DNA of 64,000 bases from Patescibacteria group bacterium (GCA_038064475.1 JBBTTA010000002.1:19195-83194), one strand, 5' to 3'; shown: positions 3,905 through 63,673, numbered from the stretch's first letter. Notes: generated from the letters alone by a model not told the origin. Translations and numbers: made by a program.

Positions 3905-3986
3905 GCTCTCAGGGCAAGCACTTCGACTATAGCTCAAGATAAACGCTTCGCCTTTAGAACAGCCTAATTCTATATTCTTCAAATAA

Positions 3987-4020
3987 CTCTCAAACTGAGA
4001 CGGCCGTCCCAGTTTGAGAG
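3987..4020. terminator. Bidirectional terminator hairpin CTCTCAAACTG-N12-CAGTTTGAGAG
   Basis: Perfect 11-bp stem whose loop is itself palindromic (GACGGCCGTC). It sits between convergent tsaD (+) and the CAP-domain gene (-). Confidence 0.55.
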
Positions 4021-4061
4021 TTAATAAAGTCGAATCAATCCTATTCTAGGTCAATCTGTAG

Positions 4062-5123
4062 CTAGATAACCAGCAAATCAGCTGAAAGCAACAGATAGTT
4101 GAAGTAGAAGAGCAAACAAATGATTGCGAGAAGTGCCGCACCATATGCCATGTTGCGTGAGTGTTGTCGGTGCACTTGGCGATACACCATAAGGAGCATC
4201 ACAAATGCAATCAAAAGTCCGATAACCATGTATCCCCATGCAACAGCCGCGCGTGGGCGTGACATCAACTCTTCCAATACAAGCGCTTCATTTGTTTTTT
4301 CTGTTGGCGCTTCAGCGGGTGCAGGTTCTTCATTTGTCTCTGCGTACGTATCTGTTTCATTTGTAATACCCAATGGAGCAATGGGAAGTGTTACAACAGG
4401 TTCTGGCTCAGGCATCACCTCAGCAACTTCTGGCACTACAGGCTCTGGTTCAACGACAGCAACCGTCTCACCGGCGATTTCTGCCGCACCTTCTTGTGGA
4501 ATAAATTCACTCTCAATCTGCACACTGTTCGATGCTTCTTCGGCAACAACTGCTGGCGTACCAAACAATTGCACGACGTACACCGTTTTCTTTCCTTTGT
4601 ATGTTCCTGAAACAGCGGCAATACCAACTTCGGTAAAGTTGCCATTCATGATGTTGGCACGATGTCCCGGAGAATCCATCCATGCACGATTCACGTCATG
4701 TGAATCTGAAAAGTTCACCGCGAGATTTTCTCCTGCGCGCACAAACTGATATCCAGCGCGATAAAACCAATACCATGGATCAAGTCCATCGGGGCTCGTG
4801 TGTGCAAAGTATTCATTCTTCGCCATATCTTCTGCCTTCATGCGTGCCGCTTCTTCAAGTACGGGATTTATTGAAAGTGTGCCAAGTCCTTCTGCTTCGC
4901 GATCGTCGTTGGCAAGATCAACAAGCACTGCAGGCACAACTGACGCGAGAAACTCGTTGTTCGTGCGCACCAAGACCGCTTGAAATACTGAAAAACCAAA
5001 CAAAAGTACGACAACAAGCGCGATTGCAAGCACACTTGCTTCACGCAACGCATGAGGTTTGTGTTCGTTCCCTTCATGCGGGATAAAATAATCTTTGAGA
5101 TGTTTTCGCATAGATGCAAACAT
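4062..5123 (-). CDS. Membrane-anchored CAP/SCP (PR-1-like, YkwD-like) domain protein
   Basis: N-terminal TM helix. Motifs HTSPDGLDPWYWFYRAGYQF...GENLA...WMDSPGHRANIM are typical of the CAP superfamily. Acidic Pro-rich linker and a C-terminal TM. Confidence 0.7.
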   Translation of the reverse strand: MFASMRKHLKDYFIPHEGNEHKPHALREASVLAIALVVVLLFGFSVFQAVLVRTNNEFLASVVPAVLVDLANDDREAEGLGTLSINPVLEEAARMKAEDMAKNEYFAHTSPDGLDPWYWFYRAGYQFVRAGENLAVNFSDSHDVNRAWMDSPGHRANIMNGNFTEVGIAAVSGTYKGKKTVYVVQLFGTPAVVAEEASNSVQIESEFIPQEGAAEIAGETVAVVEPEPVVPEVAEVMPEPEPVVTLPIAPLGITNETDTYAETNEEPAPAEAPTEKTNEALVLEELMSRPRAAVAWGYMVIGLLIAFVMLLMVYRQVHRQHSRNMAYGAALLAIICLLFYFNYLLLSADLLVI

Positions 5124-5133
5124 TACTCTAATG

Positions 5134-5790
5134 TTACTCTGTCACCTCTTCATCAACAAGAGCGGCATACACAACCAAGACGCGGTCGTATTCTTGTGAT
5201 GTGTGATCAAACGTTCCTGAGCATGTTATGAGGCGGAGTCCTGCGTGATCAATATCACCGTACACTTTTTCTGTTGGAAATTCGCTGCGATTGTAGCGTT
5301 CAAGTGCTGTCACGCGAAATGTCGCTGTCGAACCATCTTCGCGATCGACATAAATGTAGTCACCTTGTGTGAGTTGTCCCAAAAAGAGAAACACCGCCGG
5401 TCCCATGTACGAATCCACATGCCCGAGGACGATTGCAGGACCTATTTCCCCCGGTGTTGGACCATGTATATACCAACCAACTTCTTCAAATCCCTTTGGC
5501 GTCTCTACCTCGCCGTTCGCATCGAGACCAAGTTCGACAAAATGTGTATCGATATAAATGTCAGGAATGCGCAATCGAATGGGGGCAGATGCTTCAAGTG
5601 GTGTGCCGAATTCAAATGTAGGCGCAAACAATTCAAAAAAACCTTTGGTGCCGTCTGAAGCAACATACGACACCACGGTTCCTCGCGAAGCAAGAAACAT
5701 GCTTATGCCAATCGCAAAGAGGATAACGCCGATTGCAGAAAGGTTTTTGTGGAGAAAGTCGGTGACTTTTTTAAAGTCAGGGATTTGCAT
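5134..5790 (-). CDS. Sortase family transpeptidase
   Basis: N-terminal TM. IVLGHVDSYMGPAVF matches the His motif. LRLITCSGTFD matches the TLxTC catalytic Cys motif. Confidence 0.8.
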   Translation of the reverse strand: MQIPDFKKVTDFLHKNLSAIGVILFAIGISMFLASRGTVVSYVASDGTKGFFELFAPTFEFGTPLEASAPIRLRIPDIYIDTHFVELGLDANGEVETPKGFEEVGWYIHGPTPGEIGPAIVLGHVDSYMGPAVFLFLGQLTQGDYIYVDREDGSTATFRVTALERYNRSEFPTEKVYGDIDHAGLRLITCSGTFDHTSQEYDRVLVVYAALVDEEVTE

Positions 5791-5887
5791 ACGAATATAG
5801 TAACTATTTTAGACCATTTTGTCAATGTTCTGTGGAAAAAAACAAAAACCGCCCGAAGGCGGTCTTTGTTAAAGAGTTGGGGTTCTT

Positions 5888-7609
5888 TTACTTTCGACGA
5901 CCTGCTGTGAGAGCAAAGCCACCAAGAAGCGTGAAGAGTGAGCCAAGTGTGCTTACAGATCCTGCCATTCCTCCCATACCTGTCGCTGGTGCGCCAGCTG
6001 GAACGAGGGCAATCTGTTCACCCAAGACTTCTCCGCCATCATTTGAACCTCCTCCGCCTCCACGTCGGCTTGAGTCGCCACCTCCACCGTTATCATCGTC
6101 GCCATCTGTTTCGCGGTTGGTGTATGTACATACGACGTCCTCTCCTTCGCTAAGGCTGATTTCAATATCAGTTTCACCTGCGTCGTGTGAGAATTCGTCG
6201 TTACATTCAATCGTTGGAGCCTCCCAGCCCTCTGGAAGAACTTCGTTGATTGTGTATGAACCAGCCTCAAGATCACTGAAGACCTTTTCACCATCGTCGC
6301 CAAGTGTGAACAATCCAAGACTACCATTGAAATCAAAGAGGTTACCGTTTGCACTTGCAATCTGCTTGATGATTGTGATGCTTGCATCACCTGGGTCTTC
6401 TACGAGTCTGTTCGTAAACGTACAAGTAATATCGTCACCTTCTGCGAGAGTAATACCAATTGCGCCCTCGCCTTCAAAGTCTGCCACTACCTCGACTTGA
6501 GATTCGTCAAGACAGGTAATGTCTACAAGACTCCAGTCTGGAAGACCAACTTCAGTAACCGTGTGTGGACCAGCAGATACATCAAGTGCTCCTGACGTTT
6601 CTCCACCTGCCAAAACTGCTGTAGGTGTTACTGCGTCGTCCAAGTAAAAGTCAAAAGTTTGCTCGCTTTCAACACCCGTTACCTTGTTGATAGTAATAGT
6701 TGTGTCATCAACTTCATCCATTGTGTTTGTGAACACACAGGTGATGTTATCGCCGTCTGCAATGGTTACCCAGACACTGGTGTCTTCTTCTACGATGTAG
6801 GCATCCCAACCTTCAACGTCAGCGTTTGTACATACTACTGAACCAAAGCTCCAGTCTGCCTTATCAAGTTCTGCGACTGTGTGAACATCCTCCAAAAGAT
6901 CAGGGAATGTTTCGTAGTCTCCGTTGTTACCAAGAAGGTAGCTATCGAAGATCGTATTATCGATGTCCTCAAAGCTCTGACCATCAAGTGTAAAACCGAA
7001 CTCAACCTGATTACCTGCTTCGTTGTCTGTATCCTTCATGATCGTCAAAGATCCTGTAGCTGGAGGCACTACAACAACCGTATTTGTAATCGTACATGTT
7101 GCACCGTCTGCGGTGAGGTCAATATCTTCACAACCTTCGTAGGTAGTGTCGAAACCTGCTGCTACTACCTCTGTAACTGTGAAAAGGCCGTCTGCGAGGT
7201 CAAGTTCAACATCGTTTGAACCATCTGCTTCAAATGCTGTTGAACTACCACCATTGATGATAAAGCTAAAATCATCTGCATTCGCATCTGTCTCACCAAC
7301 AATTACTTTCTCAACTGTGAGAGTGCCTGTTGTTGGTTCTGGTACATTTTCATTACACCACGCATTACTACCATTACCGTTCTCGTCCAATGGTCCTGCA
7401 TAATCAAAGTCCCCGTGCGCAATGTGACTGTCATAGGCAGACAAATCAGGAGTATCCAAATAATTCCATGTATCCCCTGTTTTGTGACAAACGTCGAACT
7501 TTGCAGGAGTCTGTGCAGAAGCAAAACTTGCAATTGCAAGACCAACGATAACTACTGTGCCGAGTACGAGATTTGCAATTCGTACAAAGCCCATTGATTT
7601 GCTATTCAT
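5888..7609 (-). CDS. Secreted cell-surface protein with repeated Ig-like (Cna-B/prealbumin-like) domains and a C-terminal sorting signal
   Basis: Signal peptide. At least four repeats each ending in C(T/V)(F/Y)TN(T/R). Gly-rich linker. C-terminus ...LVPAGAPATGMGG + hydrophobic stretch + RRK. It lies directly adjacent to the sortase gene. Confidence 0.7.
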   Translation of the reverse strand: MNSKSMGFVRIANLVLGTVVIVGLAIASFASAQTPAKFDVCHKTGDTWNYLDTPDLSAYDSHIAHGDFDYAGPLDENGNGSNAWCNENVPEPTTGTLTVEKVIVGETDANADDFSFIINGGSSTAFEADGSNDVELDLADGLFTVTEVVAAGFDTTYEGCEDIDLTADGATCTITNTVVVVPPATGSLTIMKDTDNEAGNQVEFGFTLDGQSFEDIDNTIFDSYLLGNNGDYETFPDLLEDVHTVAELDKADWSFGSVVCTNADVEGWDAYIVEEDTSVWVTIADGDNITCVFTNTMDEVDDTTITINKVTGVESEQTFDFYLDDAVTPTAVLAGGETSGALDVSAGPHTVTEVGLPDWSLVDITCLDESQVEVVADFEGEGAIGITLAEGDDITCTFTNRLVEDPGDASITIIKQIASANGNLFDFNGSLGLFTLGDDGEKVFSDLEAGSYTINEVLPEGWEAPTIECNDEFSHDAGETDIEISLSEGEDVVCTYTNRETDGDDDNGGGGDSSRRGGGGGSNDGGEVLGEQIALVPAGAPATGMGGMAGSVSTLGSLFTLLGGFALTAGRRK

Positions 7610-7793: not shown

Positions 7794-7906
7794 GCCCGAT
7801 TGTGACGTCTCACAATCGGGCTTATTTCATATAAATTTCTAAAGGACATTTTTCGAGTGTCGTAAAAATGTCCTTTAGACACTCTTTTCGCGCGCGAAGC
7901 GCGCGC
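7794..7906. promoter_or_regulatory. Cluster of three perfect palindromes in the divergent promoter region
   Basis: 7794-7821: GCCCGATTGTGA-cgtc-TCACAATCGGGC. 7838-7879: TCTAAAGGACATTTTT-N10-AAAAATGTCCTTTAGA, with a partial copy TTCTAAAGGACA at 7749. 7890-7906: GCGCGCG-AAG-CGCGCGC. Upstream of the surface-protein/sortase operon (-) and the 8059 gene (+). Confidence 0.3.
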
Positions 7907-8370: not shown

Positions 8371-10620
8371 ATGGTTCCCGATAAGTTTCTAAAGCCCTAC
8401 AGCCATACAGATACAGAAAAAAGAATTTATTCCGCTTGGGAAGAAAGCGGCCTTTTCAACCCTGATGTATGTGTTGAAAAAGGTGTTGCCGCCCCAGACG
8501 CTCCTTCTTTCTCTATTGTCCTTCCCCCACCAAATGTGACGGGCACACTCCACACCGGACACGCTCTCGGCACAACTATTGAAGATATTGTTGTTCGCTA
8601 CCACCGCATGAAGGGCGACAAAACACTCTGGGTCCCTGGAACTGACCACGCCGCTATCGCCACACAAAGTAAAGTTGAAAAGATGCTTGAAAAAGAAGGT
8701 GTCAAAAAACGCGACCTTGGTCGTGAGGCGTTTTTGGAACGCGTTAATCAGTTTGCACAAGAATCTCATGACACTATCGTTGGACAAATTCGTCGTATGG
8801 GATCATCAATCGATTGGTCACGCGAAGCATTCACACTCGACGAAGTGCGTACAAAAGCAGTACGTACTGCTTTTGTGCGCATGTATGAAGATGGTTTGAT
8901 TTATCGCGGTGATCGTATTGTGAACTGGGATTCAAAACTTCAAACAACAGTTTCAGATGATGAAGTTGATTGGAAAGAAGAAAAAACGCCGTTTTATTAT
9001 TTGAAGTACGGTCCGTTCACGATTGCGACAGCGCGTCCTGAAACAAAATTCGGTGACAAGTACGTTGTCATGCATCCAGACGATGCTCGATACGCGAAGT
9101 ACAAACACGGCGACACACTTGCACTTGAGTGGATTAACGGTCCGATTACAGCAACCGTTATCAAAGACTCTGTGATTGATATGGAGTTCGGCACGGGTGT
9201 CATGACGATTACACCATGGCATGACACCGTTGACTTTGATATAGCTCTACGACACAAACTTGATAAAGAACAAATCATCGACACTTTTGGCAAACTACTT
9301 CCCATCGCAGGAGATTTTGCCGGCATGCAAATTAAAAAAGCGCGTGAAGCAATTGTGGCAAAGCTTACGGAAAAAGGTCTTGTTGAAAAAATAGATGAAA
9401 ACTATATTCACCGCATCGCCATCAACTCGCGTGGTGAAGGAGCAATCGAACCACAAATTTTGCGTCAGTGGTTCATTGACGTAAACAAACCGTTCATACT
9501 CAAACACTCAAACATCCCTTCAATCAAAAGCGGAAGCGAAACAACACTGAAGTCGATTATGCGCGCAGGCGTTGAACACAAAGCAATCAACGTACTTCCC
9601 GACCGATTTGAGAAAGTCTACTACCATTGGATTGATAACCTGCGCGACTGGTGTATCAGTCGCCAAATCTGGTACGGGCACCGTATCCCTGTGTGGTACC
9701 GAAATCAGAATCAAGAATCAGGAGTCATGAATCAGGAAGAAGTCTACGTTGGTACAGAAGCTCCAGAAGGCTCCGATTGGGTGCAAGACGAAGATACGCT
9801 TGATACATGGTTCTCATCAGGTCTTTGGACATTCTCAACATTGGGCTGGCCCTACTCCGCCGAGACGGCTACGAAGGGCAAACCTGGGCCCGAAAATGAT
9901 TTTGCGAACTTCCATCCTACGAACCTTCTTGAGACTGGCTACGATATTCTTTTCTTCTGGGTTGCACGCATGATTTTGATGACAGGCTACTTGTTGGGTG
10001 AAGTCCCCTTCAACACTGTGTATCTTCACGGTTTGGTGCGTGATGAAAAAGGTCAGAAGATGTCGAAGTCCATTGGCAACAGTGTTGATCCACTTGATGT
10101 CATTGATGCGCACGGCGCGGACGCGCTTCGCATGGCGCTCGTTGTCGCTGTTGGTCCGGGTAATGACAGTAATCTCTCTGACGATAAAATTAAAGCGTAC
10201 AAAAAGTTTGCGAATAAAATCTGGAACATCACGCGTTTTGTTCTTGAAAAAACAAATGAAGTCCCTGAACGCCCATCACTCACTGATGCCGACATCACAC
10301 GCATCAATGAATTGAATGCACTTATTCAAGAGATTACAGAGGATTTGGAAAAGTATCGCCTCTACCTCGCTTCAGAAAAGTTGTATCATTATGTGTGGCA
10401 CACACTTGCCGATGTGATTATCGAAGAACGCAAAGTGATTCTTGAGGGTAGTGACGAGACGGCAAAAGTGTCTGCACAATGGACATTGCGCACAATTCTT
10501 CGCACATCACTCGCTTTGCTTCACCCATTCATGCCATTCATCACTGAGGACATTTGGTCTGATGTGAAAGGATCAGACGACCCAATGCTCATGATTATGT
10601 CGTGGCCTCGTCAGATTTAA
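8371..10620 (+). CDS. valS: Valine--tRNA ligase (compact 749-aa form)
   Basis: HIGH-region PPPNVTGTLHTGHALG. KMSKS motif present. The ValS-type editing/anticodon regions run throughout. Confidence 0.85.
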   Translation: MVPDKFLKPYSHTDTEKRIYSAWEESGLFNPDVCVEKGVAAPDAPSFSIVLPPPNVTGTLHTGHALGTTIEDIVVRYHRMKGDKTLWVPGTDHAAIATQSKVEKMLEKEGVKKRDLGREAFLERVNQFAQESHDTIVGQIRRMGSSIDWSREAFTLDEVRTKAVRTAFVRMYEDGLIYRGDRIVNWDSKLQTTVSDDEVDWKEEKTPFYYLKYGPFTIATARPETKFGDKYVVMHPDDARYAKYKHGDTLALEWINGPITATVIKDSVIDMEFGTGVMTITPWHDTVDFDIALRHKLDKEQIIDTFGKLLPIAGDFAGMQIKKAREAIVAKLTEKGLVEKIDENYIHRIAINSRGEGAIEPQILRQWFIDVNKPFILKHSNIPSIKSGSETTLKSIMRAGVEHKAINVLPDRFEKVYYHWIDNLRDWCISRQIWYGHRIPVWYRNQNQESGVMNQEEVYVGTEAPEGSDWVQDEDTLDTWFSSGLWTFSTLGWPYSAETATKGKPGPENDFANFHPTNLLETGYDILFFWVARMILMTGYLLGEVPFNTVYLHGLVRDEKGQKMSKSIGNSVDPLDVIDAHGADALRMALVVAVGPGNDSNLSDDKIKAYKKFANKIWNITRFVLEKTNEVPERPSLTDADITRINELNALIQEITEDLEKYRLYLASEKLYHYVWHTLADVIIEERKVILEGSDETAKVSAQWTLRTILRTSLALLHPFMPFITEDIWSDVKGSDDPMLMIMSWPRQI

Positions 10621-13047: not shown

Positions 13048-13080
13048 AGCCCTACGGGCGAGCCACGGTTTTTGTATTAA

Positions 13081-13195
13081 ACGGTAGAGTGAGCTTGTCC
13101 TGTTGAAACGACTTGCGAGCGCGACGGCGCGAGTACGAGGAAAAATGAAGCTTCATTTTATCCGTACGTTTCGACAGGACCATGCGAATGTCTTG
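13081..13195 (-). ncRNA. Unclassified structured element, copy 1 (abuts the tRNA-Arg 3' end)
   Basis: Outer stem GTCCTGTTGAAACG/CGTTTCGACAGGAC. Conserved core ACTTGCGAGCGCGACGGCGCGAGTACGAGGAAAAAT. Inner palindrome AAAATGAAGCTTCATTTT. Conserved ATTTTATCCGTAC. Its homologues at 18302-18391 and 62166-62296 have different but still base-paired stems. Confidence 0.4.
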
Positions 13196-13267
13196 TGCCC
13201 CCACTAGGAATCGAACCTAGATCTTTCCCTTAGGACGGGATTGCTCTATCCATTGAGCTACAGGGGC
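13196..13267 (-). tRNA. tRNA-Arg (CCT)
   Basis: Reverse complement: GCCCCTG-TA-GCTC-AATGGATA-GAGC..., anticodon loop GTCCTAA, T-arm CTAGGTTCGATTCCTAG, acceptor 3' strand CAGGGGC. One A-A mismatch at the base of the anticodon stem. Confidence 0.75.
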
Positions 13268-17710: not shown

Positions 17711-17802
17711 ACCGTGATGTCTTCTATTGTAGCAAAAAACACAAAACTCCGCGGTAGCGGAGTTTCATGATAGGTCTTGTATCGATAAGCCGAATTCTGT
17801 AT

Positions 17803-17835
17803 CCAGCTCCAGTTTTTTCAAACTGGGGCTGGACG
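17803..17835. repeat. Hairpin module CCAGCTCCAGTTT-tttca-AAACTGGGGCTGG, copy 1 (P18 position of rnpB)
   Basis: 13-bp stem with one G-U on the plus strand (C-A on the minus-strand RNA). Four copies in the window. Confidence 0.6.
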
Positions 17836-18066
17836 ACAGGCATCTATCTGGGATGAAAATTACTTTTCACCTCAAGCGGCACTTCTAACGTAAATCAAAG
17901 ACTAACGTTAGACTCGGCCTTGCACGTAGATAAGGATTTTGCCGTTTCACCTCTCATGTCACCATGGGAGTTCACCTCACCGAAGCGAGGGCCAAACTTC
18001 TTTCGTTGTTTGGCGTCACTGTTCGCACCTCTATGCTTGCGCACGACGGGTGTTACCCGCTACCGT

Positions 18067-18102
18067 CCTCCAGCTCCAGTTTTTTCAAACTGGGGCTGGA
18101 CG
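18067..18102. repeat. Hairpin module copy 2 (between P4 and P7 of rnpB)
   Basis: Stem identical to copy 1 and extended by GTC/GAC. Confidence 0.6.
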
Positions 18103-18119
18103 TGTTCGGACTTTCCTCA

Positions 18120-18148
18120 CCCAGCTCCAGTTAAAAACTGGGGCTGGG
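18120..18148. repeat. Hairpin module copy 3 (P3 position of rnpB)
   Basis: CCCAGCTCCAGTT-aaaa-AACTGGGGCTGGG. Confidence 0.6.
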
Positions 18149-18195
18149 CGCGCCTGTCTAATACAAGGTGAATATACTATACCCTATTTTTCGAC

Positions 18196-18300
18196 TTTTT
18201 GCAACCCTCTTTTTCTTGTATTCGTATTTAACGACCTAACGAATTTTCTTTTGTATTGAACGCTGGAACGAGGTTTCCTTTGCATTTAACGGCCCAACGA
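18196..18300 (-). promoter_or_regulatory. Three direct repeats TGYATTnAACGnnnnAACGA upstream of the rnpB promoter
   Basis: tgtattcgtatttAACGACCTAACGA / tgtattgAACGCTGGAACGA / tgcatttAACGGCCCAACGA, spaced ~25-30 bp apart. Read directly. Confidence 0.3.
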
Positions 18301-18301
18301 G

Positions 18302-18391
18302 TTTATAGATTTGGAATGACTTGCGAGTGCGACGGCACGAGCACGAGGAAAAATCCAGTAGGATTTTATCCGTGCATTCCAAATCTATAAA
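18302..18391 (-). ncRNA. Unclassified structured element, copy 2 (immediately 3' of the nrdB stop)
   Basis: Outer stem TTTATAGATTTGGAATG/CATTCCAAATCTATAAA (17 bp, perfect). Core ACTTGCGAGTGCGACGGCACGAGCACGAGGAAAAAT. Inner palindrome AAAATCC-agta-GGATTTT. ATTTTATCCGTGC. There are compensatory changes relative to copy 1. Confidence 0.4.
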
Positions 18392-18400
18392 GGAGTGCTT

Positions 18401-19408
18401 TTACCATTCAAGTTGGCCCCCTGTCTTGTATTCACTCACACGTGTTTCAAAAAAGTTCTTTTCCTTGCGTGTATCCATGATTTCAGACATCCAAGGGAAT
18501 GGGTTTTTCTTTCCGTAGACGGGTGCTAGGCCAATACGTTCCAATCGGCGATCTGCAATGTATTCGAGATATTCTTCGATGCTTCCTGGTGTAAGTCCCA
18601 TAATTCCCTTTGGCAATGCTTCGTGTGCGTATTTTTGTTCGAGTATGACTGCCTCTTTTATTTTCTCTGTCAAAAGCCCCTTAAACTCTGGCGTCCAGAT
18701 TTCTGGATTTTCCTGAACAATAGTGTTGATGAGGTCTGAACCGAATGCGAGGTGCACTGTTTCATCACGCAAGATAAATTGGAACTGCTCCCCTACTCCC
18801 ACCATTTTGTTTTGACGCAACAAAGACAACATCATTGCAAAACCGGCGTAGAAGAAAATGCCTTCCATGATGACGTAGTAGCCAACAAGATCGTGCACGA
18901 ACTGTTGAATATTTGCGACGCCTTCTGTTTTAAAATCAGGATCAAAGACTGACTTCGTAAAGTTGATAACAAAGTCATCCTTCTCTTTGATTGATGGGAT
19001 CGTGAGATACATGTTGTAAATCTCATCAGGATCAAGTCCCAACGTGTCACACGCATAGATGAACGTATCGGTGTGCACTGCTTCTTCATATGCCTGACGC
19101 AAAAGATACTGTCGACATTCAGGGTTCGTGATGTGTCGATAAATCGCCAACACAATGTTGTTTGCGGTCAACGACTCTGCGGTCGAGAAGAATCCAAGGT
19201 TGTAGAGAATCATGTGACGCTCATCATCTGTCAGCGCACCTTGTCCCTGTTTCTTCCACAACTCCACATCAAGCTGCATCGAGACCTCTTCAGGCACCCA
19301 GTTGTTCGCGACACCGTTTTTGTAATGTTGACGTGCCCACGGATACTTCAACGGCAATATTTTATTTGGATCAACGTTTGATGCGTTGAGAATTTGTTTT
19401 TGACTCAT
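18401..19408 (-). CDS. nrdB: Class I ribonucleotide reductase beta subunit (NrdB)
   Basis: Di-iron carboxylate motifs EAVHTDTF, FYAGF and RDETVHL. Confidence 0.85.
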   Translation of the reverse strand: MSQKQILNASNVDPNKILPLKYPWARQHYKNGVANNWVPEEVSMQLDVELWKKQGQGALTDDERHMILYNLGFFSTAESLTANNIVLAIYRHITNPECRQYLLRQAYEEAVHTDTFIYACDTLGLDPDEIYNMYLTIPSIKEKDDFVINFTKSVFDPDFKTEGVANIQQFVHDLVGYYVIMEGIFFYAGFAMMLSLLRQNKMVGVGEQFQFILRDETVHLAFGSDLINTIVQENPEIWTPEFKGLLTEKIKEAVILEQKYAHEALPKGIMGLTPGSIEEYLEYIADRRLERIGLAPVYGKKNPFPWMSEIMDTRKEKNFFETRVSEYKTGGQLEW

Positions 19409-23687: not shown

Positions 23688-24479
23688 TCATTCAGTAGTG
23701 GACTGGCGACCAAGCTCCTCCTGTATGACCTTATTTACCGCCTCCATCACTTTTGGATCAGCTTTACCTGCTTTGGCCTGCTCGTAGCGTTCTAAGGCGG
23801 CTGTGCAATGGTTATCGATCCAGAACTGGCGTCTGGCTTGAGCCCAGTCGGTCATATCTGCATCAGGGTGATGGTCAAAGAAGTCATTCGTCCATTTGTC
23901 GGTTGAAGCAAGGTATGCTGCCGAACCAGCATCATCTTGGCCGTAGGCGTCCGGACACACAGCACGGTGGTCAATAGGAATAATGCCAACAGATACCGAG
24001 AAAAGAACAGTGTATATGGCGATAAAGATCCACGGGACCAAAAGTTCTATGTGTGTGAAAGCCCAATACTTGCTTGTATCTTTACCTCGTCCAAGCACCT
24101 CCCATTCCGTATCGTACAGAGCCATAGGTAGGCGTGACTCGATGGCGTGCAATACTCTGTATTTTGCATCGTTGAGATTTTTATGAGATTGAATGATTCG
24201 ATACCACAGATAGCACATTGTGGCACCTGCAATAGGTGCGACGGTAAGAAGCCAAGAGATTGTAACCGGACTCGCTTTAGTGGCGACAAAGCCAAGGAGT
24301 GCTACCAACGCTGTGTTTAATGCGAGAAAGAAATCATTGGATTTCTGTCTTCGGTCGCTGATACGCTCCGCAGAAGCAATATATACTTTGTACTGCTCTA
24401 GAAGATGCTCGACGTATTTGTCGCCATAGTCGGCACTCGTCGACACAAACAGCATTTTATTTATATCTTCTGGTTTCAT
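23688..24479 (-). CDS. Multi-TM protein (263 aa): N-terminal helical region, 2-3 TM helices, ~100-aa C-terminal soluble domain; possible SLATT-like membrane effector
   Basis: Hydrophobic segments FFLALNTALVALLGFV, ISWLLTVAPIAGATMCYLWY, LLVPWIFIAIYTVLFSVSVGII. Last gene of the operon, 3 nt after the TIR-like gene. The SLATT assignment is inference only. Confidence 0.4.
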   Translation of the reverse strand: MKPEDINKMLFVSTSADYGDKYVEHLLEQYKVYIASAERISDRRQKSNDFFLALNTALVALLGFVATKASPVTISWLLTVAPIAGATMCYLWYRIIQSHKNLNDAKYRVLHAIESRLPMALYDTEWEVLGRGKDTSKYWAFTHIELLVPWIFIAIYTVLFSVSVGIIPIDHRAVCPDAYGQDDAGSAAYLASTDKWTNDFFDHHPDADMTDWAQARRQFWIDNHCTAALERYEQAKAGKADPKVMEAVNKVIQEELGRQSTTE

Positions 24480-24482
24480 GAC

Positions 24483-24857
24483 CTAAAGGGCATTAATGAA
24501 CTTGGTGACGTTATCCCATGTCCAGTGTAAGATTCTTTTGCCGCTTAACTCTGATGGCAGACGATTCGCACCAGTGTCGTGGATATACATGGGCAAAACT
24601 GGCACGCCTTCTTCATACGCACACTGTATTTCCCACCTTGCGCCATCTGCATTGAATGTGTTGTTGCTCACGAAAGCAATCACTCCATCACAACCTTTAA
24701 TTCGTTCTCTGCAGTTTGTTTTCCATGATGAATCCCACGGGGTCTTCACTGACATATCAACGAAAGTAAAAGGTGCGCTCTGCCTCTGTGATTGATGAAC
24801 GAGGTTATCTCTAGCGAAACGATCTTCTATGGCGAAACTCACAAATATTCTTTTCAT
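24483..24857 (-). CDS. TIR-like domain protein (DUF1863/ThsB-like, 124 aa)
   Basis: KRIFVSFAIEDRF...CDGVIAFVSNNTFNADGARWEIQCAYEEGVPVLPMYI matches the FxSy..D / ..vI.lvS..t..S.W...Ei..A.e.gkPiipv pattern of bacterial TIR-like domains. Confidence 0.55.
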   Translation of the reverse strand: MKRIFVSFAIEDRFARDNLVHQSQRQSAPFTFVDMSVKTPWDSSWKTNCRERIKGCDGVIAFVSNNTFNADGARWEIQCAYEEGVPVLPMYIHDTGANRLPSELSGKRILHWTWDNVTKFINAL

Positions 24858-24865
24858 ATATGGTT

Positions 24866-27691
24866 TTAGTTTGTTACTGGATCTGTTTGCAACACAAGCT
24901 TCTTAATTTTCTCAATACGGTTGCTGACTCGCACACTTTTTTCGGCCATTTCTTTGACCTTATTGCATGCGTATATAACAGTCGTATGGTCACGATCAAA
25001 TTGTTTACCTATAGATGGGAAAGAGAGTCCTAGGTCGGTGCGAAGAAGGTACATTGCAATCTGTCTTGGCACTACAACGTTTGCACGTCTGGTGTGCTCG
25101 TACAATTCTTCTGTGGTAACACCGTACATCCGAGCAGATGTATTAACTATTCTTTCTGCTTCAGATTTGAGTCTGTTTTCCTCGGCGAGGATATAGTCAT
25201 GCGTGTCTGCTTCATCGTCGAATAGACCACCATCCTCATCTTTGTTTGCGTGAGTCGGTGCAAGTGCTTTGTTGATGATTTGTCTCACTCGTTCACGTGT
25301 AATACCCGATCTTGTCGCAATCTCTTCGAGTGTGTGCCGACGTTGATCTCCGAGCCCATAATACATTTCAACCATCGCACGGGGTCTTTCTTCCATGTTT
25401 TCGAGCAACTCTGTCTCGTCCATCTCGTTCTTCTGCTTCGCTTCCTCCAACTGGTTACTTCTCCTAGCTTCAAGCGGTGTGGGTTCTGCGTCAACAAAGC
25501 AGTCGTAAATTATTTCTCCAAACTCGAGCTTTTTTTGTGCTATGTAAACGGGTATATCAATGGCTGGTCCGTAGTTCTGCGGAATGACGCCTTTTTGGTA
25601 TGCTTCGTTAATCATTCGTCCAAGAGACTCATTCAATATAAGTTCGGCAAGATATAGTTGAGCCTTGTGGGACCCAAGCGCATCCTTCTTTTGTGGATTG
25701 TCACCGAAATAACGTTTGTTTATTGGGTGGGAAGAGTTGATGAGGATAAAGCCCTGAGTGGGGCTACCTTCCATCGGATCGAGAGCCGATTGCTGGTTCT
25801 TTGACAATCCGTTATCAAAATCCCAATCCTTGAACAATCCTGTAACACCGCTTGGCGGATGATCCTTCTTCACCTTGATGTCTACACGACACTGGGCGAG
25901 ATAGCCACCAACATTCGCCTCTATAATGCCTGACTCATCATTTCTTAATCCTCGAATAGTGACCTCCATTTTGGCGACTTTCGACGTGGTCCTCATTCTG
26001 CTCGGGACAGGAATTTTCCCTTTCTTAAGAACTATGGAGTTATTGGTGCTCGTGAAAGTGATTTTGGTCCCTTTCTTTACTGTAGCTAGGTCCACATACA
26101 GATTAAGAACTGTGTCTTTTTCGGCAACCGTCCTCACATATTCAGGATTAAAGGTGATCCCTTTTTCTGGGTACACTATTTCTTCAGATACGATAGAAAC
26201 AACAACGGATGTACTTCTCTTCTCTGCAACGGCTTCCAGTGTGTCGACAGTGCGTGCTTTGGAGCCGGTTACAAGTATTGTCTTTACTAGTAGGTCGTCA
26301 CTGCCTTCAGGTGCTTCGTCTACCATGAATTCCACTGGAGAAAAGCCAATAAGATTTCTTGATGACTTAAGCTTCACGATTGTTCCGGGTTTAACAACCC
26401 GAGTATCGATTGTTATTTGAAGTCCGTATCTTTTTCCGACTGTGATCGATATGTTGTTCCGAGCAAACTGTAGCCCTCCAGTAGGTCGGGTTTTCTTTTT
26501 GGATCGAATTGTGCCACTAACATCTTCTCCCGTGAGCTCTTTGTAGAGCTTGTTCAACTCCTCAAACGCCTTGCGGTGCCTCTCTATGGTCGATTCTGAA
26601 ATGCCCTCATTTGTTCTTTTGTGTCGTTCCTCGTTTAGAATTGGGTACAGCCAGTCCTTAACCTCCAATGCCAATTGTTTGTAAAAATCGTGCTGTTTAT
26701 TGAAGCCGTCTCTTGAGTCAGAAAGGATAGCCTCTGGATGTTTCGAATCGTTAATTTTTTCCAGAATAATCTCTCGGGCACCCGTGAGCTTCATCGTGCC
26801 AAAAAACTTGTCTGCACCCGGCAGATCGTCGAGGCCGAAAAATGTTTGGTCGTAAATTGCTTCTTTGTCATCATAGACAAGTAAACCGTTCTCTCTTTCG
26901 TCTCCCACGGTAGGAAGTGCGGATGTCGCTTTATAAAGCTGCACATCAACAGTAACGGGGGCATACTTCTCGAACTGCAACATGAACCTTTTAGAGTCAG
27001 CGAGGTCCCCTTTAGGGAACTGGTATTTGATAAGACTTTCTTTTGTCCCAGCCCTATCTTTATAAACAATTTTCACCTGTCTCCGGTCGTTGTTATTAAT
27101 TAGGCGCAACATGTAGAACACACCCATTTTCTTCACAAGGTTCTCGTAATCGTGCAGTGGCGTGTTGTCCAACACAAACTCAATGACAGTGCCTCTATCT
27201 CCATCGAGACCCCATTCTTTGGCGATTTTTGTGAGTGGTACGTCTGACTTCTCAATACCGATGTATTGTTTATCCTTCTTCCAATAAAAACTACAGACGG
27301 TGGCTTTGCCGTTTTTTAAAGACTTTATTTTTCCATCCCGATGGTAGAAAAGCACGTCAGACAATCCTTGACCGAATATGCCACGTGCACTAAACCCTTC
27401 GTAAGCTCCGCTCTTGGCGGCACCGTACTCCTTAAACTTCTTTTCAAGTTCTTCTGCCGTCATTCCCTCAGCATGGTCAACGATTCGAATCATTCGTTTT
27501 ACCTTGTCCACAAGTATTGTGACGGGGAATACCAATTTATCCGCCCCAGATTCAGACTCCGTAATGCGTCTATAGCTATCATCCGAATTTGTAATAGGTT
27601 CGGTGAGTGTCTTCAGTAAATTCTTACCGACAGCATCAGACTGCTTTCGTTTTATGTATCGGGACGCAAACTGTACGGCAATTTCAGACAT
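24866..27691 (-). CDS. 941-aa fusion protein: N-terminal GHKL (Hsp90/MutL/MORC-type) ATPase, large central region, sigma-70 region-4 HTH, DnaA C-terminal (domain IV) DNA-binding domain
   Basis: GHKL motifs: N-box EPITNSDDS, G1 IVDHAEGMT, G2 SARGIFGQGLSDV. Sigma70 r4: TLEEIATRSGITRERVRQIINKAL. DnaA domain IV: VVPRQIAMYLLRTDLGLSFPSIGKQFDRDHTTVIYACNKVKEM (DnaA has PRQIAMYL...IG..FGGRDHTTV.HA). Confidence 0.6.
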   Translation of the reverse strand: MSEIAVQFASRYIKRKQSDAVGKNLLKTLTEPITNSDDSYRRITESESGADKLVFPVTILVDKVKRMIRIVDHAEGMTAEELEKKFKEYGAAKSGAYEGFSARGIFGQGLSDVLFYHRDGKIKSLKNGKATVCSFYWKKDKQYIGIEKSDVPLTKIAKEWGLDGDRGTVIEFVLDNTPLHDYENLVKKMGVFYMLRLINNNDRRQVKIVYKDRAGTKESLIKYQFPKGDLADSKRFMLQFEKYAPVTVDVQLYKATSALPTVGDERENGLLVYDDKEAIYDQTFFGLDDLPGADKFFGTMKLTGAREIILEKINDSKHPEAILSDSRDGFNKQHDFYKQLALEVKDWLYPILNEERHKRTNEGISESTIERHRKAFEELNKLYKELTGEDVSGTIRSKKKTRPTGGLQFARNNISITVGKRYGLQITIDTRVVKPGTIVKLKSSRNLIGFSPVEFMVDEAPEGSDDLLVKTILVTGSKARTVDTLEAVAEKRSTSVVVSIVSEEIVYPEKGITFNPEYVRTVAEKDTVLNLYVDLATVKKGTKITFTSTNNSIVLKKGKIPVPSRMRTTSKVAKMEVTIRGLRNDESGIIEANVGGYLAQCRVDIKVKKDHPPSGVTGLFKDWDFDNGLSKNQQSALDPMEGSPTQGFILINSSHPINKRYFGDNPQKKDALGSHKAQLYLAELILNESLGRMINEAYQKGVIPQNYGPAIDIPVYIAQKKLEFGEIIYDCFVDAEPTPLEARRSNQLEEAKQKNEMDETELLENMEERPRAMVEMYYGLGDQRRHTLEEIATRSGITRERVRQIINKALAPTHANKDEDGGLFDDEADTHDYILAEENRLKSEAERIVNTSARMYGVTTEELYEHTRRANVVVPRQIAMYLLRTDLGLSFPSIGKQFDRDHTTVIYACNKVKEMAEKSVRVSNRIEKIKKLVLQTDPVTN

Positions 27692-33118: not shown

Positions 33119-33162
33119 AAAAAACTATTCTCTAATTCGTGCGAATTAGAGAATAGTTTTTT
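33119..33162. terminator. Perfect 21-bp-stem hairpin AAAAAACTATTCTCTAATTCG-tgc-CGAATTAGAGAATAGTTTTTT
   Basis: Read directly. Bidirectional A/T tracts. Confidence 0.5.
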
Positions 33163-36252: not shown

Positions 36253-36587
36253 TACCGAGGAGTATACGCGAAATGTATCCATTGTCAATTGGTTGGATAA
36301 TTTCTAAATAAAAATAACATCACGTCAAATCACCACTCCCTTCTTCTTTTGAAAAACACAGAACCTATCAGCTGATAGGTTCTTCCGTACAGCGCCGTCG
36401 CGCTTCCCGGGGTTTTTCAAAAAAGAAGAAGCTCGTTTCCACGTTATACATATAAAATCGAGATAAAAAGATGTTTGACAATAAACCAGAGAAGACTAGA
36501 CTATACTTACAAACCAAACGGCTTCGGCCTTCCCCACAAGGGATACAATGGGGTTCATAAGAACTCTCCCCGTAAGGGGTTACAAAG

Positions 36588-36619
36588 AAAAACTCATGCA
36601 AACAAATGCATGAGTTTTT
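36588..36619. terminator. Perfect palindromic terminator AAAAACTCATGCA-aacaa-TGCATGAGTTTTT overlapping the last codons of the MazF-like gene
   Basis: Read directly. T-tracts on both strands. Confidence 0.55.
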
Positions 36620-37004
36620 CTTTTATATTTTCAAAATCCTCTTGCGAAATATTTCCAATTTTATACTTAAAGCGCCTTACATCTATAAGTCGGATTTGCG
36701 AAAGAATTGCGTTATTTAAAACACCATTTAGAAATAAAGAAAAATAGAAAGGGCCTTTCTTGATTTGTTTTGTTACTGGTACACAAACACATACATTACG
36801 ACCGAATTTTTTAATCACAATGATTGGGCGTAAAAACTGCTCTCCTTTTCCATCTTGTTCATGACCAACATTCACACCAAGTGCACACCACCAAACCTCA
36901 CGTTCATGAAAGAACCGAGTGTTCTCCTGAAAATGAATATCTTTTTTCACTAGGTTCCATCCATCAAAATTCTTAAATATCATTCCTATATGGTATGACA
37001 TCAC
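36594..37004 (-). CDS. MazF/PemK/Kid-family endoribonuclease toxin-like protein
   Basis: EREVWWCALGVNVGHEQDGKGEQFLRPIIVIKKFGRNVCVCVPVTKQIKKGPFYFSL...AILSQIRLIDVRRF..KIGNISQEDFENI follows the PemK pattern (RGdiw.vdl...G.E..k.RP.lVis...vPlTs....p..v.l...g....S.vl.dqirtidk.Rl). No antitoxin ORF is evident upstream. Confidence 0.6.
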   Translation of the reverse strand: MMSYHIGMIFKNFDGWNLVKKDIHFQENTRFFHEREVWWCALGVNVGHEQDGKGEQFLRPIIVIKKFGRNVCVCVPVTKQIKKGPFYFSLFLNGVLNNAILSQIRLIDVRRFKYKIGNISQEDFENIKEKLMHLFA

Positions 37005-61851: not shown

Positions 61852-62124
61852 TTACTTAGAGGAAGCGGCTGTATCGTCTGCTGTCTGCTTTGAAGGCTGC
61901 CCAATTGCGCGGAGCTTTGCTTGTTTACGAGCAAGACTTCGTTCACCAATACCCTTTACGTCAATAACTTGGCGTCCACGGTACTGACCACACGAAGGAC
62001 ATGCCTGATGACGAATGTGGCTTGCGCCACAGTTCGCACAGAGAGAAAAACGCGCTTCCGTAAGTGCGTGGTGGCTTCGACGGTTTCCCGTGTGCCCCTT
62101 CGTGTGTCGCATTCGAACTGTCAT
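61852..62124 (-). CDS. rpmF: 50S ribosomal protein L32 (with C-terminal extension)
   Basis: MTVRMRHTKGHTGNRRSHHALT ... CANCGASHIRHQACPSCGQYRGRQV matches the L32 pattern (RRSHHAL, zinc-ribbon C..C...H..C..CG.Y.GRQV). Confidence 0.8.
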   Translation of the reverse strand: MTVRMRHTKGHTGNRRSHHALTEARFSLCANCGASHIRHQACPSCGQYRGRQVIDVKGIGERSLARKQAKLRAIGQPSKQTADDTAASSK

Positions 62125-62165
62125 AGGTTTGTACTATAGCACGGGTCTTAAAACTGCGCAAAACA

Positions 62166-62296
62166 CGTTCGCATAGTCCTCTTGAAACGCACGGATAAAA
62201 GTAAGCTTACTTTTTCCTCGTGCTCGCGCCGCCTGCCTACCGCAGGCAGGTCGCGCTCGCAAGTCGTTTCAATAGGGATAAGCTCACTCTACCGTT
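62166..62296 (+). ncRNA. Unclassified structured element, copy 3 (opposite orientation, in the rpmF upstream region)
   Basis: CGTTCGCATAGTCCTCTTGAAACG-CACGGATAAAA-GTAAGCTTAC-TTTTTCCTCGTGCTCGCGCC-[CCTGCC..GGCAGG]-TCGCGCTCGCAAGTC-GTTTCAATAGGG-ATAAGCTCACTCTACCGTT. It shares its outer flanks with copy 1. The inner palindrome has a third sequence variant. The small hairpin is replaced by a longer one. Confidence 0.4.
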
Positions 62297-62341
62297 AGAT
62301 ACTCCAGTGAGAAGCCCCCGATAGTTACAAAACCCTGAGTG

Positions 62342-63561: not shown

Positions 63562-63673
63562 ACCACAATTGTATAGCAAGAATCATGAAGCTAGAATCAT
63601 GAATCAGGGCACGTAAAATCTTGATTCATGATTCATAATTCCTGATTCTTAACCCGACATGTACAATGGGCGC

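Follow-up and report, generated by a model that had tools for sequence, protein, structure and literature searches.

Copies of the element in the window

Within 64,000 nt of DNA from a Patescibacteria group bacterium (in the following, the window), a preliminary description noted three copies of an element whose stems differ but still pair, and proposed a structured RNA under selection rather than a MITE. This raises the question of what the element is, i.e., whether its structure is conserved, which strand carries it and whether it acts as a host RNA or as a mobile repeat. All three copies were found at the positions and on the strands that had been reported (13081-13195, 18302-18391 and, inverted, 62166-62296). 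They can be aligned over ~115 nt, each folds far better than its shuffled versions (z of -5.7 for copy 1 (+), -8.2 for copy 2 (+) and -5.7 for copy 3 (-)), and the 16-mer GACTTGCGAGYGCGAC occurs exactly three times in the window, once per copy. A covariance-model search, which the description had suggested, added a new and divergent copy 4 at 36346-36423 (-) with 36.8 bits (E = 3e-7), which gives a density of 4 copies per 64 kb. Copies in related genomes do covary. Table 1 lists the parts of all four copies. Throughout, the forward strand refers to the plus strand in copies 1 and 2 and to the minus strand in copies 3 and 4, and L-numbers (L014-L084) denote related loci from genomes or metagenomes.

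Table 1. Parts of the four element copies in the window (strand is that of the forward fold).
Copy	Part	Position	Strand	Remark
1	Conserved 5' flank motif TTGTATTAAACGG, leader or target-like	13072-13084	+	common to window-type copies
1	Left end, including outer tandem-G.A 5' half GUGAGC (13089-13094)	13085-13096	+	pairs with GCGAAU (13184-13189)
1	P1 5' arm GTCCTGTTGAAACG	13097-13110	+	
1	Three-way-junction core; P2a-GA-P2 hairpin 13114-13135, P3 hairpin 13139-13163	13111-13166	+	86.7 bits
1	P1 3' arm CGTTTCGACAGGAC	13167-13180	+	
1	Right end CATGCGAATGTCTTG, including 3' G.A half (13184-13189)	13181-13195	+	abuts 3' end of tRNA-Arg on the other strand
2	Leader modules, three in tandem, TTGTATT.AACG-NNNN-AACGAG, period 29	18213-18301	+	
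2	P1 5' arm TTTATAGATTTGGAATG	18302-18318	+	17/17 complementary
2	Three-way-junction core	18319-18374	+	94.5 bits
2	P1 3' arm	18375-18391	+	
2	Right end GGAGTGCTT	18392-18400	+	stops at nrdB stop codon (18401-18403) on the other strand
3	Right end, 3' G.A half GCGAAC (62167-62172) followed by GTGTTTTG	62159-62174	-	
3	P1 3' arm	62175-62189	-	
3	Core, P2 lengthened by a 19-nt hairpin extension	62190-62264	-	81.9 bits
3	P1 5' arm	62265-62279	-	
3	Leader GAGTATCTAACGG and 5' G.A half GUGAGC (62282-62287)	62280-62304	-	
4	Whole copy with leader TGTATAACGTGGAAACGAG; P1 36412-36431 / 36340-36357, core 36358-36411	36326-36450	-	

The stems and inner palindromes quoted in the description are correct, as are the change from C-G to U-A in the small hairpin and the expansion of the latter in copy 3. 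The outer stems, which had been called perfectly paired, do pair, but copy 1 contains one T.G wobble (GTTGAAACG / CGTTTCGAC) and copy 3 three mismatches. In the core of copy 4, the GCGC-GACG-GCGC hairpin is retained; its P3 is different and its junction strands are altered. TRF reports 2.6 copies of period 29 at 18226-18301 in the leader of copy 2, and a 20-codon ORF is embedded in copy 1 only.

The genomic contexts are as had been described, i.e., tRNA-Arg (13195-13267), nrdB (18401-19408), rnpB (17772-18167) and rpmF (61852-62124), all on the minus strand. A functional link to rpmF, rnpB or the tRNA is not supported, given the mixed orientation of the copies relative to their neighbouring genes. 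This, together with the placement of copy 3, also led us to reject an rpmF leader, a riboswitch or another cis-regulator: copy 3 is found downstream of a terminator that belongs to the NUDIX gene, and by eye a promoter-like TTGCGC-17-TATAGT stands between it and rpmF (omitted by our promoter scan because its -35 matches only 3/6 positions). An association with tRNAs was likewise rejected, with few copies near tRNA genes and the tRNA-like 3' flank at L023 not being a tRNA.

Besides the element, several other features of the window were recorded. The rnpB gene barely passes the Rfam threshold (102.3 vs. 100 bits). A PemK/MazF-type toxin gene is located at 36594-37004, just upstream of copy 4, where no antitoxin was identified. 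At 63578-63650, an imperfect inverted repeat of 29 nt with GAATCATGA-like units precedes the gene for RNase HII and could be an operator. Precomputed Pfam labels at 23688-27691 mark a 941-aa protein (Sigma70_r4, DnaA_C), a TIR/ThsB-like protein of 124 aa and an 8xMP protein of 263 aa, which may form a defence island. Finally, adjacent genes for a CAP-domain protein, a sortase and a SpaA-type pilin at 4062-7609 suggest a sortase-assembled surface structure.

Core fold, covariation and strand

Based on an alignment of 31 distinct copies, the core is a three-way junction of ~57 nt that caps the long stem P1. In order, it consists of P1, the junction strand ACU, the P2a branch, a short NGA strand, P3 and GU(N). 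The first branch is composed of P2a (3 bp, UGC/GYA), a tandem G.A/A.G, P2 (4 bp) and a GAC(N)G loop. The second branch, P3, starts with a GGA/UCC base and continues with a bulged A, three invariant A-U pairs, a variable tip and, mostly, an AGCA loop, such that GGA-AAA...UUU-A-UCC is nearly invariant; such invariance is partly imposed by the pattern used in the search.

Among the 31 copies, 97.9% of the cells are paired, 18/29 pairs show changes on both sides, and 0/500 shuffles are as good. Slid controls (one to three columns) reach at most 52% pairing. That is, the proposed conserved structure with compensatory changes is supported. Even P2a covaries, with U-A in most copies, A-U in L060 and C-G in L075. 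Divergent variants (L075, L084, both copies of L076, L077 at 390-461 and copy 4 of the window) keep the architecture with 37-68 bits, and the fusA-locus copy of L077 reaches 19 bits only. Chance similarity or a recent local duplication without selected structure could be suspected from copies 1 and 3, which have in common the flanks beyond the stem and most of P1. With ~35 distinct copies in many genomes and compensatory changes in every helix, covariation and model scores refute this reading, and we give it practically no weight.

The strand favoured by the fold is the opposite of the proposed sense strand. The forward strand as defined here is the more stable one in 30/34 copies, by 3.3 kcal/mol on average, and it alone forms the GCGAGC/GCGAGC tandem G.A pairing, for which the reverse strand gives U.C. 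G16 is paired with either C or U at position 56, i.e., a wobble that is permitted on the forward strand only. A second tandem-G.A module closes the base of P1 and is flanked by covarying pairs in 8/8 window-type copies checked.

Distribution and locus-specific arms

Public genomes (one per species) and metagenomes were scanned with a pattern of three blocks, ACTTGCGA-N-CGAGGAAA-N-TTTATCCG, which resulted in ~35 distinct copies. The genome scan returned 23 loci, of which 21 carry the element when read individually, while the other two (Rhodobacteraceae, Neomegalonema) are chance matches. Fifteen of the 21 are titled Saccharibacteria, Taylorbacteria or Patescibacteria group and six only "bacterium", i.e., all true matches with a named taxon come from Patescibacteria MAGs. 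Two MAGs have five matched loci each. Among 27 further loci from metagenomes, 22 are true. In viral contigs, a two-block pattern gave only chance matches inside coding sequence. The model search found extra copies in L076 (1388-1468) and L077 (390-461), a few kb from the fusA-locus copies, such that relatives are multi-copy as well.

Based on a crude ORF call, all copies but one are intergenic; the exception (L028) lies inside a called ORF. Their orientation relative to both neighbouring genes is mixed. Metagenome contigs repeatedly break inside the element, and several end there. Two observations on individual contigs are worth recording. One metagenome contig (L057, 1-367) matches L055 as far as the core's 3' end, where it passes into the 3' part of a 16S rRNA gene; this is either a chimeric assembly that was joined at the repeat or a copy located in or next to a 16S insertion. 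Furthermore, a different repeat of ~165 nt with 92-93% identity is found on three contigs of MAG JAUYJM01 (L019 4461-4624, L021 348-512, L024 4767-4933).

P1 spans 12-47 bp and is near-perfectly paired with a locus-specific sequence. In total, we counted 739 Watson-Crick pairs, 18 G.T, 8 A.C and 14 others. A strand asymmetry of P1 cannot be derived from these numbers, since 18 G.T vs. 8 A.C (~15 vs. 8 without shared ancestry) is not significant. Within one genome, L020 and L029 have unrelated arms and nearly identical cores (L043 and L060 overlap these loci at 100% identity). L020 and L028 represent an orthologous site, for which the flanks are 75% identical and the arms unrelated, with 55/57 bases of the core being the same and the two cores pointing in opposite directions relative to the neighbouring gene. 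Such retention of the core looks like purifying selection, which would be compatible with a host-useful RNA, too. In summary, the family is a new structured repeat whose conserved part is at the tip of a hairpin with locus-specific arms, and its core is present in Saccharibacteria and Taylorbacteria MAGs.

Near-perfect P1 stems that grow outward may result from arm-to-arm copying by quasipalindrome template switching, which is an established mutational process. Plain hairpins of 17-35 bp with short loops are numerous in the related genomes (e.g., 35 bp in L043, 8005-8079). At this site, the orthologous L028 (2114-2210) has 20-bp arms and an unrelated structured insert of 57 nt, compared to a 5-nt loop in L043; the insert may represent a second family of hairpin caps. 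The window itself contains perfect or near-perfect inverted repeats of 16-21 bp with loops of 0-10 nt (33119-33162, 2912-2952, 3984-4023, 8846-8881, 36584-36623, 7838-7879), which look like unusually long (bidirectional) terminators.

The window-type form and the nrdB site

Copies of the window type are asymmetric. The unit begins just 3' of a TATTTAAC(GG)-like motif and ends with ...GYGARYG-N-YTTTG; its conserved 5' flank, CTTTTGTATTTAACG-NNN-AAGCGAGC, is triplicated upstream of copy 2. No terminal inverted repeats common to the window copies were found (the arms differ and the leader is asymmetric), and window copies 1-3, which were tested for target-site duplications, show none.

The site 3' of nrdB is informative with regard to gain and loss. 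The window carries a canonical copy there. In L075 and L084 (NrdB 90% identical), this position is occupied by a divergent copy with unchanged orientation. The site is element-free in L073, L069 and L082 (NrdB 90-94% identical), where the flanks align. That is, the element was gained or lost between close relatives. L075 and L082 are the only filled/empty pair that aligns; the junction GGTAA / CCGTT was read by eye from an internally ambiguous alignment. Since the leader is still present in a weak form at the empty site of L082 (GGTAA/CCGTTTGG...), it may belong to the target DNA and lie outside of the element. As a side observation, the orientation of rnpB with respect to nrdB is reversed in some relatives whose NrdB is 90-94% identical (L069, L075, L082), and a shared bidirectional terminator replaces the promoter there.

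The TATCCC-armed form and fusA terminator caps

A second form with TATCCC...GGGATA ends is found in Saccharibacteria MAGs and in JAUYJM01, the DnaB of which is closest to Pacebacteria (81% identity to the nearest relative). Its copies have terminal repeats of ~28 bp in common. Direct repeats of at least 8 bp flank 7/32 copies compared to 1.6% in the null model, and all seven are TATCCC-armed. The target duplications of this form measure 7-9 bp, where 7 bp fits three JAUYJM01 copies by eye. These observations bear on the argument against a MITE given in the preliminary description. It stands in so far as the window copies lack shared terminal repeats, but the same core occurs elsewhere within elements whose copies share their terminal inverted repeats and are flanked by target-site duplications of 7-9 bp. 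The argument is further weakened by window-type copies being present or absent at one and the same site among close relatives.

Within one genome, the core can point either way with respect to the asymmetric tips of the arms (L015, L019 and L022 vs. L021 and L024). This orientation freedom, which also holds relative to the orthologous gene next to L020 and L028, would suit a double-stranded DNA site, i.e., a protein-binding palindrome or an invertible switch with inverted repeats, and so would the sequence-invariant base of P3. Against it, P2 and the tip of P3 covary without retaining their sequence, as expected of hairpins and not of protein-binding sites, the inverted repeats differ between copies such that there is no common recombinase site, and the core is without a promoter-like site, save for one chance-level match in copy 2. 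We consider such a DNA site very improbable.

TATCCC arms without a core were not found in the related loci searched. Within ~0.5 Mb of related sequence, there is neither a core split around an ORF nor a full-length autonomous relative, and the gene between the two copies of L021 is dnaB and not a transposase.

A third form is observed 3' of fusA in a Taylorbacteria-like clade. L079 (EF-G 89% identical) has a plain terminator, ACAAAAAGCCCC-GAAA-GGGGCTTTTTG, at this site, and so has L081. In L076 (94%) and L060, the same outer arms, ACAAAAAGCCTCC / GGAGGCTTTTTG, enclose an inner stem of ~10 bp plus the core, which replace the loop; the A-tract and T-tract arms of the fusA-locus copies are homologous to the plain terminator. 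The far arm of L060 and L076 repeats the final fusA codons in inverted form and tracks each genome's own codons, and the C-terminus of EF-G is conserved. That is, this palindrome has grown outward, too. Insertion into a hairpin apex, as inferred from this one locus, has parallels in IS1397 and ISKpn1 (loop of the REP palindrome) as well as in IS1111/IS110 and class C group II introns (terminator stem-loops), given that the fusA module likewise sits at a terminator loop. In contrast, hairpin inserters of the IS1397 kind are 1-2 kb long and encode their own enzyme, whereas the module of the element is ~80 nt and non-coding. This module (inner stem and junction) might represent a novel mobile unit that homes to the apexes of terminators, MITEs and other hairpins as ssDNA or RNA, possibly with a catalytic core. 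Such homing would explain one core on unrelated locus-specific arms across Patescibacteria lineages, but we regard it as rather doubtful.

Comparison with known RNA and repeat families

The description could not place the element in a known RNA family, which agrees with our Rfam 15 scan: there is no match at gathering thresholds, and none for three copies even at E <= 10. The only matches, all sub-threshold, are those of the AT-rich L014 copy to plant models of hairpin miRNA precursors. We found no description of the element in the literature.

With regard to topology, the core resembles a type I hammerhead. Both are three-way junctions with a tandem G.A abutting stem II, where CUUGCGA is similar to CUGANGA and GAG takes the place of GAAA. 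A hammerhead was nevertheless rejected, since the catalytic residues G5, A6 and A14 are not retained, most copies have a G at position 17, and the Rfam hammerhead models are silent at E <= 10. A kink-turn was rejected as well, since the tandem G.A has Watson-Crick pairs symmetrically on both sides and lacks the 3-nt bulge that a kink-turn has directly 5' of it, between the C and NC helices. An SRP-like reading was rejected on sequence. For copy 1, no integron attC R-box (R'' RYYYAAC, R' GTTRRRY) can be seen by eye, and the copies are dispersed rather than arrayed.

Among mobile repeats, the window type can be compared to IS200/IS605-derived PATEs and to REP/REPIN elements, which are moved by HUH (Y1) transposases or RAYTs. 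They are alike in the lack of inverted repeats and target duplication, a flank motif on the 5' side only, strand-specific hairpins, intergenic dispersal and the absence of coding potential. They differ in that the conserved part of the element is the tip and not the arms of the hairpin, and in a flank motif of ~10 nt compared to targets of 4-5 nt. Furthermore, the family is not characterised by GTAG plus a short palindrome, which is the hallmark of REP elements, and its other lineages have target duplications. No HUH protein, TnpA or RAYT is among the ~20/67 window ORFs scanned or within the precomputed Pfam labels for ~27 kb, and no transposase, HUH nuclease or recombinase was found to adjoin any copy (with ~20 ORFs scanned for the window part).

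Correia/NEMIS, ERIC/IRU, RUP and BOX elements are similar in being ~100-170 bp long, intergenic, multi-copy and able to fold back. Hairpins of Correia elements are RNase III substrates, and those of the element would be so as well if transcribed. The form in Saccharibacteria and JAUYJM01 resembles MITEs in its ~28-bp terminal inverted repeats and 7-9 bp target duplications. On the other hand, there is no sequence similarity to any of these families and none has a counterpart of the covarying junction core. In addition, in contrast to Correia, ERIC, RUP and BOX, the arms are not common to the copies of the window and of the Taylorbacteria-like MAGs.

Transcription signals and possible host functions

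We searched the four window copies for promoters and terminators. A sigma-70-like promoter upstream of the forward strand was found for none of them (0/4), while the same scan reports TTGCAA-17-TATAGT for rnpB. Neither leader nor core contains a consensus match, apart from the chance-level one in copy 2 mentioned above. A simple terminator scan flags 0/4 of the element hairpins, which is a weak test as the P1 loop exceeds the limit of the scan; its only match inside a copy is the inner P3 hairpin of copy 4.

These data concern the reading as a family of independent small RNA genes, trans-acting or a new ribozyme, whose forward strand would be transcribed from the leader and whose mobility would be secondary. 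Here, the active RNA would be the ~57-nt junction, with P1 providing a terminator or a stem for processing by RNase III. The conservation of the core from Saccharibacteria to Taylorbacteria MAGs with covarying stems and near-invariant junction bases suits such a role, as do the tandem G.A modules, which are typical of folded RNA, and the conserved L020/L028 core between diverged flanks. Window-type copies also have a TATTTA ~7 nt upstream of the hairpin base, about half of them a U-run just after it, and the source genome encodes RNase III in the rpmF operon. The missing promoters argue against this, all the more as rnpB has a canonical one. Given its weak form at the empty site, the leader looks like target DNA, close relatives (L076, L069, L073, L082) have lost the copy or carry a degenerate one, one lineage shows target duplications, and the junction is unlike the hammerhead core or any Rfam ribozyme. 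We take a small RNA to be possible, though on the unlikely side.

Alternatively, the element could be a cis-acting module of host 3' ends, i.e., a reinforced (bidirectional) terminator or an mRNA-stability element that spreads by duplication or conversion between terminators. Many long and perfect terminator-like hairpins exist in these genomes, many copies abut the 3' ends of genes, and the fusA element with its A-tract and T-tract arms is exactly where relatives have a plain terminator. However, the copies show no orientation preference relative to the preceding gene (roughly 13 vs. 10), yet the fold is strand-specific. About 5/30 copies lie between divergent genes, copy 3 is placed past the NUDIX terminator and upstream of the promoter-like site before rpmF, and the terminator scan, a weak test in view of its loop limit, adds no support within the window. 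We thus judge a 3'-end module unlikely.

Discussion

The data show the fold and its strand asymmetry, the dispersal of the element and its gain or loss among closely related genomes. Being intergenic in all but one case, lying in either orientation and varying in presence at one and the same site, the element behaves as a mobile repeat rather than as a cis-regulatory RNA. Our preferred explanation, held with moderate confidence, is a family of non-coding and non-autonomous mobile hairpins with a strand-specific fold. The fold would be used in single-stranded form on the forward strand as defined above. It would be recognised by an enzyme whose gene lies elsewhere and which would move or copy the element, either as ssDNA in a peel-and-paste style or as a transcript. 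Folding of P1 would juxtapose the ends of the element at the outer G.A module, and effects on neighbouring genes, e.g., as hairpin terminator or RNase III site, would be incidental. An autonomous IS relative would be expected to carry the ends GCTTCCTATCC...GGATAGGTCTGG.

Several observations speak against this explanation. Neither an adjoining enzyme (with ~20 window ORFs scanned) nor an autonomous relative (in ~0.5 Mb of related sequence) was found, and the core shows signs of purifying selection. Furthermore, the three vehicles of the core (asymmetric without duplication, MITE with repeats and duplication, terminator cap) imply different routes of mobilisation, such that the constant core may have a function of its own instead of acting as a mobility signal. 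Finally, the ends of copies with a long P1 are far from the core, i.e., cut sites would be distant if the core were the recognition site.

Patescibacteria have tiny genomes, which are thought to be repeat-poor. A family as dense as four copies per 64 kb, with one core in Saccharibacteria and Taylorbacteria MAGs, therefore suggests an unrecognised mobile or RNA system in a large uncultured group, and in practice it breaks metagenome assemblies. It may also illustrate how, in nature, arm-to-arm copying keeps long palindromes perfect and lengthens them. Should the core turn out to be an active RNA or the recognition module of a new transposition route, the element would be a new tool-like element; otherwise, it would still be useful as a marker and as a possible addition to Rfam.
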